13,335 nt of DNA, taken from the UHGV virus genome UHGV-0874476; one strand, given 5' to 3'. Of the stretch, positions 7,080 to 12,834 are shown piece by piece. The position numbers were made by a program, and so were the translations under genes. Below the pieces are notes generated by a model that did not search any database, was not told where the DNA came from, and saw only the letters and a list, made by a program, of their open reading frames with translations. The DNA is from a virus. Each line of letters opens with the position of its first letter. Position 1 is the first letter of the stretch.

Positions 7080-7372
7080 TACTGTCCCACCCCAAAATGT
7101 TTCCGCAGCATTGCCAATTCATCGACTGCTTTCAGAAATGCTGTCCGCATATCGGTATACCGAATACAATCCTGCTGGTGCTGGTCTTGAAGGTCTTTGC
7201 AAATTCTTTCCAACTCTGCAATTCTGTACTTTTCTTCTTTTTCCACTTTCTTAATTTCAACAGATTCATAAACATCTTCTAGTTTTGATCTAAGAACTGC
7301 GTTTTCGTCAATAAGGTTTCTGATTTGTTCAATCATTTCCTGCTTTGTCATTTCTCTTACACAATCGCACAT
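7079..7372 (-). CDS. hypothetical coiled-coil protein (97 aa)
   Basis: ATG 7372 preceded by GAGG at 9 nt; heptad-like charged/hydrophobic pattern; first gene after the tRNA island. Confidence 0.6.
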   Translation of the reverse strand: MCDCVREMTKQEMIEQIRNLIDENAVLRSKLEDVYESVEIKKVEKEEKYRIAELERICKDLQDQHQQDCIRYTDMRTAFLKAVDELAMLRKHFGVGQ

Positions 7373-7400
7373 ATTTTTTACCTCACAAAATTATTTGAAA

Positions 7401-7426
7401 TGCGCGGGTGTGGATTTGCACCACAC
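7401..7426 (-). other. tRNA 3'-half-like remnant (T-arm-like hairpin GUGUGG-UGCAAAU-CCACAC plus CCCGCGCA tail); no matching 5' acceptor strand found
   Basis: plus-strand gtgtggatttgcaccacac; no complementary acceptor within 100 nt upstream on minus strand. Confidence 0.3.
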
Positions 7427-7557
7427 ATGATTTTCATTCCTACAAGTGTCCTCCGAATTATACATTCCCGACCACTATAAAATCTTATGTTTAAGCGTTT
7501 ACCTGTTCCGCCACCGCACATCACGCATTGATTACCGGCTCAATACGCAAAGCCTAA

Positions 7558-7671
7558 TTGCGACAGGTGGATTTGAACCACCGCTTATACCAACGCCAGA
7601 CCTTCCCAGATTTCAATGGTAGCTAGTCATATACTTTCTGTTGGGTGTGAGGATTTGAACCTCTGTCGCAA
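7558..7671 (-). other. composite tRNA-like structured element: 9-bp terminal inverted repeat enclosing two T-arm-like hairpins with identical UUCAAAU loops
   Basis: minus strand UUGCGACAG...CUGUCGCAA (perfect 9-bp complement); hairpins GAGG-UUCAAAU-CCUC and GGUGG-UUCAAAU-CCACC; neither hairpin has a canonical tRNA body around it. Confidence 0.35.
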
Positions 7672-7722
7672 ACCACGAAAGCTTTCTTCACAACAACAAC
7701 CGGATAAAATCATTGCTGTGCA

Positions 7723-7799
7723 TTGCCCTGAGTGGATTCGAACCACCGACAGCACGCCAGTTCATGTGTACGCTGCTCTACCAACTGAGCTACAGGGCA
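7723..7799 (-). tRNA. tRNA-like gene with canonical acceptor, D-arm and T-arm but non-canonical anticodon arm; identity undetermined, possibly pseudo-tRNA
   Basis: minus strand UGCCCUG-UA-GCUC-AGUUGGUA-GAGC ... GGUGG-UUCGAAU-CCACU-CAGGGCA-A; the 26 nt between D-arm and T-arm cannot form a 5-bp stem with 7-nt loop. Confidence 0.45.
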
Positions 7800-7912
7800 A
7801 ACCTTTTGATTTCGTAAACCGCCTATAATCCTCGGAAATCGTCAGAACTCCATGACGTTCCTTACCTCCAAACTAGGTTTTTAAAGCGCTTTATGGCTTT
7901 TACTTCCGCTTT

Positions 7913-7970
7913 GACATATGGATTGCTCGTCAGCAAATTACGCTCCGGATACCAGAGATCACCATATGTC
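7913..7970 (-). other. 58-nt three-way-junction structured element immediately 3' of tRNA-Thr
   Basis: minus strand GACAUAUGG...CCAUAUGUC (9-bp closing stem) enclosing hairpins CUCUGG-UAU-CCGGAG (one G-U) and UUGCU-GACG-AGCAA. Confidence 0.35.
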
Positions 7971-7972
7971 AG

Positions 7973-8044
7973 AGCCAGAAACCGGACTCGAACCGACAAT
8001 ATCAGCATTACAAGTACTGCGTTCTACCATTGAACTATTCTGGC
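7973..8044 (-). tRNA. tRNA-Thr (anticodon UGU)
   Basis: hand-folded cloverleaf: acceptor GCCAGAA/UUCUGGC, U8 A9, D-stem GUUC/GAAC, anticodon stem CAGUA/UGCUG, loop CUUGUAA, T-arm GUCGG-UUCGAGU-CCGGU, 72 nt. Confidence 0.88.
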
Positions 8045-8296
8045 TACTTAATAAACACCAGTAAACGCTATGCGAAAACCGGATTCCTTTTCTGAACCTG
8101 TCAGATAGGTAAAATATTCCCTTATAAAACCACTTGTCCAACTTATTTACCATACAGGTGTGGCACTAATAATTTACTTCCAGGAATCTTCCAGAATTAC
8201 CGACTACTGCTAATCACGGTCTATGGTCTTATCTCTCTGGAGAAGTTTTTTGCAAGGTTCTTCAGCAGGTATAAGTTGCCTTGCTATATGGAAAAG

Positions 8297-8369
8297 TACA
8301 GGGAGTAGGAGTCGAACCCACAATCGCTGGATATAAGCCAGGTGCAACGTACCGCATCACCTTCCCTGC
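8297..8369 (-). tRNA. probable tRNA, anticodon tentatively UAU (Ile, decoding AUA); atypical A8, weak D-stem, G1-U72
   Basis: acceptor GCAGGGA/UCCCUGU, anticodon stem CUGG/CCAG with loop CUUAUAU, T-arm GUGGG-UUCGACU-CCUAC, 73 nt. Confidence 0.5.
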
Positions 8370-8533
8370 AAAACGGCATTTCTGCCGTTAGCAACATGTT
8401 TTTCGTGCTATGCCTAAGCGCTAGGAAATATTTTCTATTTCCAAAACCTCCCGGCACTTGTGACGCACCTTTAATCAGCTCTCCGCTAGGAGGTTCTAGT
8501 ATAAAGGAGGTCTATCAAAAAAATGATAACAAA

Positions 8534-8605
8534 CGGGGATTGTAGGATTCGAACCTACGTATGCAAGAGTCAAAATCTTGTGTGTTTCCTCTTCACCAAA
8601 TCCCT
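8534..8605 (-). tRNA. tRNA-Gln (anticodon UUG)
   Basis: hand-folded cloverleaf: acceptor AGGGAUU/AAUCCCC (A1-C72 mismatch), 3-bp D-stem, anticodon stem CAAGA/UCUUG, loop UUUUGAC, T-arm GUAGG-UUCGAAU-CCUAC, discriminator G, 72 nt. Confidence 0.88.
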
Positions 8606-9098
8606 ATACTACGTTGCGATAAAAAGTACGATTCATAATATTTATAATTGTTGTTTTTGAAACCCCATAAACTTCCGCGATTCTCCTAGTTGATGTTTTC
8701 CCTTTTTGTTCTCTTATAAAACGAACATCTTTTTCCGTAAGTTTTCTGTTATTATATAATTCATTTTTTTTGCTTTCTTCAATCAAATGATATTTTGTAT
8801 TTTCCTTTGGTGTTACCCACTCTAAATTATCAACATAAGGATTTTTCTTATTTTCGTCTTTATGATGCACTATTTTCTTATTGTCATGATTCGGAATAAA
8901 CGTTTCAGCAACCGCCTTGTGAACTCTAATTCCTTTCACTGCTCCTCTTTTTCCAAGCGGTATATACACCATTAAGTAACCAGCCTTATTAACATTAAAT
9001 TTGTATATACGATTTGTCTTTAAATTTTTAATATTTCCATTTGTATCAATAACAAAATCCGCATATTCAATTCCCCCATATACCATAGTTTTAAACAT
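8604..9098 (-). CDS. HNH homing endonuclease-like protein (N-terminal NUMOD4-like segment, HNH_3-like core, C-terminal helix-turn-helix)
   Basis: motifs GIEYADFVIDTNGNIKNL and HHKDENKKNPYVDNLEWVTPKENTKYH; ATG 9098 preceded by AAAGGAG; stop codon overlaps first nucleotides of tRNA-Gln; ORF-track start 9173 is TTG without RBS. Confidence 0.75.
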   Translation of the reverse strand: MFKTMVYGGIEYADFVIDTNGNIKNLKTNRIYKFNVNKAGYLMVYIPLGKRGAVKGIRVHKAVAETFIPNHDNKKIVHHKDENKKNPYVDNLEWVTPKENTKYHLIEESKKNELYNNRKLTEKDVRFIREQKGKTSTRRIAEVYGVSKTTIINIMNRTFYRNVV

Positions 9099-9213
9099 AA
9101 TGCCACATTCTCCTTTACTGCGGATATTCCCAGTTTTATTCTCCGAATACCCCATTGTGCTTTTTCTTTGCAACCATTCTCTTCTGAACTCATAGCCTGA
9201 CAGGGCAAAATTT

Positions 9214-12185: not shown

Positions 12186-12539
12186 TCACTTCTTTTCAAA
12201 ATAAAATTTTACCGGAGCATCATTTTCTTTTACAATTCCGAAGTTCTTCGCAAGACGATAAATGAAATTCTTTTCTAATCTTTCATGCAAAGTCTGTAAT
12301 CTTTCCCGAAATTTTTCAATCGTATAAGTCGATTTGTAAAAATTACACATTCTACAAGCCGGATTGTAGTTTTCAATATCATTCGCTCCATTATGCCAGT
12401 AAAGAGGATTGATGTGATCTACCTGCATGTCCTTGTATTCCAGTTCACAACCGCAATAGGCACAATGTCCAGAATATTTGTTATATACCTGAATCCGTAT
12501 TGGTTTTGGAATTGGTTTTCGTTTTTTCTGTTCTTGCAT
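12186..12539 (-). CDS. HNH endonuclease (117 aa)
   Basis: classic HNH motif CAYCG...DHINP...N...CRMCN; ATG 12539 preceded by GGAG at 6 nt, 1 nt after upstream stop. Confidence 0.8.
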   Translation of the reverse strand: MQEQKKRKPIPKPIRIQVYNKYSGHCAYCGCELEYKDMQVDHINPLYWHNGANDIENYNPACRMCNFYKSTYTIEKFRERLQTLHERLEKNFIYRLAKNFGIVKENDAPVKFYFEKK

Positions 12540-12540
12540 A

Positions 12541-12834
12541 TTAATCTCCACTGATGTAAATGAAATCCGCATTTCTAAAACTCACATTCGGAAACATGTT
12601 TACAGCCACATTACACAAGGCAATAAACAAATCGCCTCTGTCATCTACAGTCTTAACTTTTCCATTTGTACCCTTGCAAACTATATTCTGCCCAGAAGCG
12701 TCTTTGGTTATAAAATAATCTGATTCATCGTTTAAGATAAAATCCATCGAAAGTGTTTTGCAAAGAATCCGAAATGCTTCTTCTGGTTCTATGTCAATAT
12801 TAAATGTTTGTTTTGATGTAACGTCAACTAACAT
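12541..12834 (-). CDS. hypothetical protein (97 aa); shares an identical 18-aa / 55-nt segment with the upstream gene
   Basis: ATG 12834 preceded by GAGGAA at 5 nt; C-terminal RGDLFIALCNVAVNMFPN encoded by repeat copy 12585-12639. Confidence 0.55.
   Translation of the reverse strand: MLVDVTSKQTFNIDIEPEEAFRILCKTLSMDFILNDESDYFITKDASGQNIVCKGTNGKVKTVDDRGDLFIALCNVAVNMFPNVSFRNADFIYISGD
12585..12639. repeat. direct repeat copy 1 (55 bp, identical to 13281-13335)
   Basis: cattcggaaacatgtttacagccacattacacaaggcaataaacaaatcgcctct; flanks diverge on the left. Confidence 0.9.

Follow-up and report, generated by a model that had tools for sequence, protein, structure and literature searches.

The tRNA cluster of phage T4 encodes two small stable RNAs that are not tRNAs, species 1 and species 2 (RNA C and RNA D). 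Both are cut from tRNA precursors by tRNA-processing enzymes, and neither has an assigned function. ROOL and GOLLD are known to lie near phage tRNA islands (PMC12286853, PMC5737381), and theta ribozymes, which are minimal HDV-like ribozymes, sit beside the tRNAs of gut phages (PMC10879173).

We examined a viral DNA stretch of 13,335 nucleotides (UHGV-0874476; hereafter the window) whose tRNA array contains a 58-nt RNA, E1. E1 is a new, previously uncatalogued family-level motif among the orphan structured RNAs of phage tRNA arrays. On the minus strand its sequence reads GACAUAUGGUGAUCUCUGGUAUCCGGAGCGUAAUUUGCUGACGAGCAAUCCAUAUGUC. The tRNA genes of the array and the parts of E1 are as follows.

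8533-8606, minus strand: tRNA-Gln(UUG).
8296-8369, minus strand: tRNA-Ile(UAU).
7973-8044, minus strand: tRNA-Thr(UGU), as called by Rfam (7972 according to ARAGORN), with no encoded CCA.
7913..7970, minus strand: E1, the entire three-way-junction RNA of 58 nt; the MFE fold and the RNAalifold consensus of 15 sequences are identical.
7962..7970, minus strand: 5' strand of the closing stem, GACAUAUGG, pairing with 7913-7921; its inner AUGG is invariant.
7958..7961, minus strand: junction strand J12, UGAU; the family consensus is U-G-N-U, with U, G and the final U invariant (alignment A1).
7943..7957, minus strand: hairpin 1, CUCUGG-UAU-CCGGAG, 6 bp with a 3-nt loop, variable in sequence.
7937..7942, minus strand: junction strand J23, CGUAAU, invariant (columns 33-38 of A1) and the same in 17/17 distinct sequences.
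7923..7936, minus strand: hairpin 2, UUGCU-GACG-AGCAA, with almost no variation and a loop of GACG or GACA.
7922..7922, minus strand: junction strand J31, a single U, invariant (column 53 of A1).
7913..7921, minus strand: 3' strand of the closing stem, CCAUAUGUC, given by the MFE fold, covariation and RNAalifold.
7722-7800, minus strand: aberrant tRNA-like gene.

The initial annotation had drawn a minus-strand RNA in which a 9-bp stem encloses hairpins of 6 and 5 bp with loops UAU and GACG, and MFE folding reproduced this structure exactly. The fold had an energy of -20.8 kcal/mol (z = -3.85), and none of 200 dinucleotide shuffles was as stable. The plus strand of the same positions folded more weakly (-16.6 kcal/mol, z -2.77) because the U.G pair of hairpin 1 turns into C.A. 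This fourth pair of hairpin 1 was U.G in 10 of 15 sequences, and across the family 19 G.U cells were counted versus 7 A.C cells. tRNA context was measured in 66 of the 84 E1 loci described below; all 200 tRNAs called there by ARAGORN were on the E1 strand, and E1 always lay within the array. The excess of G.U cells and the co-orientation with 200 neighboring tRNAs show that the folded strand is the tRNA strand, which the initial annotation had favored. A covariance model match over E1 spanned 7909-7974 at 81.9 bits. The 1-nt J31 suggests that hairpin 2 stacks on the closing stem. A pseudoknot between the loop of hairpin 2 (UUGCU-GACR-AGCAA) and a GUCA in the 3' flank was rejected: the pairing is present in Dulem virus 39 and in the L099 type, and GUCA is missing in the window type. 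The 3' flank, AAAGCGG in the window, differs among loci.

In a megablast search of the tRNA region against GenBank phages, the sole match came from Dulem virus 39 (lemur faeces) and coincided exactly with E1, with 90% identity across 50 nt. The TerL of this phage and that of the window phage share only 41.8% identity. Pattern scans of IMG/VR and metagenome contigs, followed by a covariance model built from the matches, yielded 84 phage and metagenome loci with one copy per locus. The copies fall into 17 distinct 66-nt sequences, a single one of which accounts for 55 of them, and one IMG/VR dataset supplied most of the contigs. IMG/VR contigs recovered with a fixed-spacing pattern account for 77 of these loci. 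Pattern scans of 185,579 representative bacterial and archaeal genomes gave no E1 match, GenBank phages other than Dulem virus 39 gave none either, and the pattern GGTGNTCTCN{7,18}GAGCGTAA returned only chance matches beyond three known loci. The carriers are probably phages of Bacillota, mammalian-gut Caudoviricetes among which E1 is patchily spread with one copy per genome.

The window phage is of the portal/TerL type. Among cultured phages it is closest to [Clostridium] innocuum phage Maintenon, with 44% TerL identity, and Maintenon is without E1. E1 was also missing from MT835477 (TerL 74%), and the closest 80 TerL relatives in IMG/VR (73-81% identity) were without it within 10 kb of TerL. 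E1 is therefore dispensable, and any function would be accessory.

Covariation was assessed in alignment A1, which holds 15 distinct E1 sequences. Standard pairs filled 93% of pair cells, compared to 28-42% when the 3' partners were slid by 1-3 columns, and the covariation score was reached by none of 500 shuffles. Changes on both sides were seen at seven pairs, of which hairpin 1 holds four (out of its six), the closing stem two (A-U/C-G and C-G/U-A, together with several G.U cells) and hairpin 2 one. RNAalifold, with no structure supplied, returned the same three-way junction from the 15 sequences, and this junction was also the MFE fold in 7 of 9 other E1 variants. Hairpin 1 was rewritten wholly among lineages (CUCUGG/CCGGAG, CUCUGC/GCGGAG, GAAUGA/UCGUUC, GAGUGA/UCACUC, GAACGG/CCGUUC) with 98.9% of its cells paired. 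The inner closing-stem AUGG/CCAU scarcely changed in the family. Hairpin 2 showed a single compensatory change, U-A to A-U, in L201, L115 and L319, along with two single-mismatch variants (L097 and L119), and has one covarying pair only. Conservation of the pairing among homologues, which the initial annotation had named as the check on its structure, is evident in compensatory changes from the 84 loci and is not due to chance.

The 25-nt core CGUAAUUUGCUGACGAGCAAUCCAU was nearly invariant, even across phages whose TerL proteins are about 42% identical. When 44 distinct array regions were aligned, the E1 core formed the conservation peak of the array, with a mean pairwise identity of 0.92 compared to 0.55-0.8 in the flanks, tRNAs included. 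Part of this conservation could stem from recent horizontal spread and not from selection; the family is narrow.

E1 matched no Rfam 15 family: nothing was found on it at the gathering score and E <= 10 in the window and L105, or at the gathering score in 21 related loci. Full-text literature searches found no description of the motif. A guanidine-II-type ACGR loop, a sarcin-ricin/loop-E motif and the 23S GTPase-centre (which has the string GCGUAAU in common) were compared by eye and rejected, since the bases they need vary or covary as ordinary pairs. A tRNA or tRNA-like identity was likewise rejected: ARAGORN and RF00005 called the four neighboring tRNAs and not 7913-7970, which has three helices and loops of 3 and 4 nt.

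We are highly confident that E1 is a bona fide autonomous conserved RNA and not a trailer of tRNA-Thr; the suggestion of a small ncRNA in the initial annotation fits such a conserved structured RNA. Our overall reading, to which we assign a probability of about 0.55, is that of an autonomous RNA module of the array, with the fold and conservation observed directly, that would be co-transcribed with the tRNAs, freed by tRNA processing and able to bind a conserved partner. E1 would be transcribed on the tRNA strand within a polycistronic array precursor and released by the endonucleases that mature the flanking tRNAs. In the window, the 5' end of E1 could be generated by an RNase Z-type enzyme cutting 2 nt upstream, behind the discriminator of tRNA-Thr, and RNase P could cut at the next tRNA-like gene. 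The closing stem of 8-9 bp would then shield both ends. Hairpin 2 would be stacked on the closing stem across the 1-nt junction, with hairpin 1 presumably sticking out sideways, and the invariant UGNU, CGUAAU and U strands, hairpin 2 and the top of the closing stem would together offer a surface for sequence-specific recognition.

The proposed ligand of this surface is a conserved partner, and a component of the host machinery for RNA processing, transcription or translation is the most likely candidate, ahead of any fast-evolving phage protein. We consider a host partner the likelier of the two because the core is invariant at about 42% protein identity and because no co-occurring ORF was found across lineages when the 27 window ORFs were compared by tblastn with E1-positive and E1-negative loci. 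The lack of such an ORF favors a host partner weakly. The host-factor binding step itself is put forward tentatively. In a search of the locus flanks for 9-mers complementary to the invariant core, no site recurred, and L115 alone showed 9 nt matching the 5' end of ROOL.

A second small structured RNA accompanies E1 in most arrays.

8447..8493, minus strand: E2, companion small three-way-junction RNA, CCUCC-UAGCGGAGAGCUG-AUUAAA-hairpin with a 7-nt loop-G-GGAGG, from single-sequence folds.

E2 consists of a 5-bp closing stem, UAG, a short hairpin, (G)AUUAA, the hairpin with the 7-nt loop, G and the second strand of the closing stem. By eye, the closing stem covaries (CCUCC/GGAGG, CCCCA/UGGGG, GCCAC/GUGGU); in a MAFFT alignment analyzed with RNAalifold the second hairpin was misaligned. 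E2 gave no Rfam match at the gathering score and E <= 10 in the window and L105. It was located upstream of E1 in at least 60 of the 66 loci, always in the same order, including a copy at about 3065-3110 of L001, and it occurred without E1 once, in L303. The two are separated by 53 nt in Dulem virus 39 and by 73 nt in phages of the L099/L113 type (as in L105). In the window type the gap widens to 485-624 nt and takes in tRNA-Ile, block B and, in some cases, tRNA-Thr.

Two further sequence elements were seen in this part of the array. Just upstream of E2, at 8503-8510 on the minus strand, which is the tRNA strand, lies a tract that looks like the 3' end of 16S rRNA, the anti-Shine-Dalgarno-like (A)CCUCCUUU(C). 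The tract was also found at 5402-5410 of L228 and at about 10976 and 11303 of L229; in E1-less relatives it follows tRNA-Gln. Reading the CCUCCUUU tract on the opposite strand as a Shine-Dalgarno sequence with ATG yielded unrelated short ORFs. Between tRNA-Ile and tRNA-Thr lies block B (8117-8295, minus strand), about 180 nt of conserved sequence that is not tRNA and is common to the window, L002, L003, L097 and the E1-less L307. RNAalifold folded it into several stems, with AUAAGACCAU/GUGGUUUUAU as the closing helix and a variable arm that can be replaced, and it had no match in Rfam. With ROOL and RAGATH-27, described below, E2 and block B are orphan structured RNAs of the arrays that carry E1, and they give the module reading a precedent.

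The constant order of E2 and E1, and their fixed spacing at 73 nt (L099/L113 type) and 53 nt (Dulem virus 39), would be expected if E1 were one domain of a larger composite RNA made of the anti-Shine-Dalgarno-like tract, E2, a spacer hairpin and E1, with tRNA genes inserted in some phages. There is a documented precedent, in that the GOLLD linker holds tRNAs (PMC12286853), and a composite RNA is compatible with the autonomous module favored above and does not exclude it. We nevertheless regard it as rather unlikely. Neither conserved long-range pairing nor complementary loops were found to connect E2 with E1, and the E2 loop is GUCACAA in some members but UGCGAGA in others. Moreover, intervening tRNAs, if processed out, would separate E2 from E1, and E2 stands without E1 in L303.

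It is also conceivable, though we hold it to be unlikely, that E1, possibly with E2, is the core of a new class of small catalytic or ligand- or protein-binding RNA by which phages of gut Bacillota manipulate host RNA processing, translation or anti-phage tRNA-targeting defence. A candidate self-cleaving ribozyme or a decoy for a tRNA-directed nuclease would be examples.

The first of these examples, a new small self-cleaving ribozyme class that cuts the array transcript, can be weighed on its own. In E1 several stems meet in a compact junction where about 27 invariant bases are gathered, as is usual for a catalytic or ligand-binding core, and related phages carry known RNAs. Type II hammerheads were located at 10833-10901 of L100, 8768-8836 of L105 and 10865-10934 of L003, on the strand opposite to E1; RAGATH-27 was found in the Dulem virus 39 array (L001 3618-3701) and RAGATH-18 just upstream of TerL in L307 (9675-9749). 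Dulem virus 39 also carries an RtcB gene about 1.7 kb from its E1 copy, and RtcB joins 2',3'-cyclic phosphate and 5'-OH ends. Against this, no ribozyme model matched E1 even at E <= 10. Its position relative to tRNA ends varies, hence no processing role is obvious, and E1 has no conserved pseudoknot or internal-loop feature of known classes, the GUCA partner of the hairpin 2 loop being absent in the window type. A ribozyme therefore appears quite unlikely.

Specific ribozyme classes were compared with E1 directly. An HDV-like or theta identity was rejected. The helix of E1 that begins at G7970, supported by covariation, has its 3' strand at 7913-7921, where conservation ends, so there is no room for P4, J4/2 and P2; HDV-type Rfam models gave no match on E1 at E <= 10. 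A theta-type cut no more than about 5 nt from the 3' end of a tRNA would be possible in 2 of 66 loci only. As a hammerhead E1 was rejected because its junction strands are UGNU, CGUAAU and U and not CUGANGA, GAAA and UH. The CUGACGA of hairpin 2 could not serve as a hammerhead core either: the position of 'G8' is A in 61 of 84 copies, and 'U4/A9' swap jointly as a Watson-Crick pair. The Hammerhead_II models matched elsewhere in L100, L105 and L003 and never on E1.

TerL was present in the flanking sequence of 50 of 83 E1 loci, with E1 upstream of it and on the same strand. Such an arrangement would suit a cis element that modifies RNA polymerase in the manner of the HK022 put antiterminator, allowing read-through of the structured array into the packaging genes, and the extreme sequence conservation would suit a conserved host partner such as RNA polymerase. 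However, E1 has no similarity to put or EAR (no Rfam match), no terminators were detected in the array and the 80 closest relatives do without E1, making an antiterminator improbable. E1 was also rejected as an intrinsic terminator, since it lacks a U tract and no minus-strand terminator-like site occurs in 7300-9000. On the minus strand of 7300-9000, the same scan placed nothing promoter-like or terminator-like closer than 140 nt to E1; the only consensus matches on that strand were weak promoter-like sites at about 8140 and 8816.

The position of E1 in the window had suggested a processing or stability element for tRNA-Thr. The discriminator of this tRNA is U7973 and the 5' end of E1 is 7970, so the reported start 2 nt after the discriminator is accurate. 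A cis-acting 3' trailer that directs the processing of tRNA-Thr or protects it could be argued from this adjacency, which is 1-2 nt in the window and L002, from the absence of an encoded CCA and from theta ribozymes as a precedent for RNA elements abutting the 3' ends of gut-phage tRNAs (PMC10879173). The adjacency is confined to these two of the 66 loci. In the other 64, the nearest upstream tRNA (Ile-UAU, Gln-UUG or Ser) was 98-188 nt off or there was none in the locus sequence, and the next tRNA downstream of E1 was 112-739 nt away. In L003, L095 and L097, the upstream block B is joined straight to E1 without tRNA-Thr, and L307 has block B and tRNA-Thr (83% identical) followed by an unrelated trailer and no E1. 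Because of these arrangements, tRNA-Thr and E1 are independent modules that are neighbors by chance in the window. A plain protective hairpin, furthermore, has no need of 25 invariant bases. The trailer reading is thus very improbable, and this part of the initial annotation is not supported.

Several other features of the array were recorded. The tRNA-like gene at 7722-7800 has normal acceptor, D and T arms and an aberrant anticodon region, which ARAGORN read as a 4-base 'gaac' anticodon and Rfam as an 18-nt insert; its homologue in L002 (4613-4680) is without a proper anticodon arm. To judge from its sequence, this gene may not decode. On the same strand, 7398-7520, 7560-7610 and 7640-7700 hold a tRNA-like gene with a large internal insertion and two isolated T-arm-like relics (GGUUCAAAUCC). 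Neither ARAGORN nor Rfam called anything on the inserted gene or the relics in this 7398-7700 region, and the 5' and 3' parts of the gene match L113, L115 and L120. A conserved leader module, '..GCACGA(U/A)AAA..UUGCUAAC + short hairpin + UUU', is located at 8371-8424 (minus strand) directly upstream of several tRNAs and recurs ahead of tRNAs in L118, L120, L201 and L115; it may serve as a promoter of the phage or as a signal for processing. Two HNH homing-endonuclease-like ORFs (8604-9173 and 12186-12572, minus strand) adjoin the tRNA array and lie upstream of it, consistent with modular shuffling of array segments among relatives.

That E1 acts as DNA, as the target of a homing endonuclease or a site of recombination or packaging, or that it encodes a small protein, is scarcely credible: HNH genes flank the array, the arms hold the palindrome CATATG and PP511791.1 carries a 34-aa 'hypothetical protein' over E1, but the compensatory changes preserve pairing and not sequence, the 19 G.U cells are A.C mismatches on the other strand and speak against the double-stranded DNA palindrome that the initial annotation had named as an alternative, every sense frame contains stops and the antisense frame mostly lacks an ATG. 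Coding was assessed in all six frames, and all were rejected. Stops interrupted 3/3 sense frames in 7-15 of 15 sequences, and the open antisense frame over E1 begins right after a stop, with no ATG in most members. The substitutions are compensatory for pairing, and in hairpin 1 they would give non-conservative 'amino-acid' changes. The GenBank CDS XCD07464.1 (PP511791.1 56669-56773; L001 2960-3064), a 34-aa 'hypothetical protein' that overlies the Dulem virus 39 E1, is almost certainly a spurious ORF call.

In practical terms, PP511791.1 misannotates E1 as protein, and E1 could enter RNA family databases. Being small and well defined, E1 is therefore cheap to synthesize and to assay for cleavage, ligand binding and protein pull-down. 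A defined partner, if true, would show what phages gain from the non-tRNA RNAs between their tRNAs; otherwise E1 would be a narrow orphan motif.

Among the RNAs described from phage tRNA clusters, species 1 and species 2 of T4 are about 120-140 nt and so larger than E1, and the phage and its host are unrelated. We know of no sequence similarity between them and E1. ROOL and GOLLD resemble E1 in lying within phage tRNA clusters, in co-orientation with the tRNAs, in patchy distribution and in having no assigned function (PMC12286853, PMC5737381). In L099 the two occur together: ROOL, at 1462-2022 between tRNA-Tyr and tRNA-Ser, is about 420 nt downstream of E1. An identity of E1 with ROOL was rejected, as the full-length RF03087 match (1-574) at 1462-2022 of L099 is apart from E1 at 983-1048 and the window is without ROOL. 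ROOL and GOLLD are 500-800 nt in length, whereas E1 is 58 nt, with no similarity in sequence or structure and nothing that points to a multimeric cage.

Theta ribozymes share with E1 a small structured RNA a few nucleotides from the 3' end of a CCA-less tRNA in gut Caudoviricetes (PMC10879173). They form a double pseudoknot, however, whereas E1 is a nested three-way junction with tRNA adjacency in 2 of 66 loci. Hammerheads are also three-way junctions with conserved junction bases, and the hairpin 2 string CUGACGA of E1 fits CUGANGA. RAGATH-27 (Dulem virus 39) and RAGATH-18 (L307) are, like E1, small orphan structured motifs of the same phages and of hammerhead neighborhoods, and the Rfam RAGATH models miss E1. 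The closeness of E1 to ROOL and GOLLD, theta ribozymes and the T4 RNAs is one of niche and not of homology. Phage tRNA islands increasingly prove to hold stocks of structured RNAs that lack an explanation, ROOL, GOLLD and theta ribozymes among them, and to these E1 adds a 58-nt motif with clear covariation and a rigid 25-nt core.
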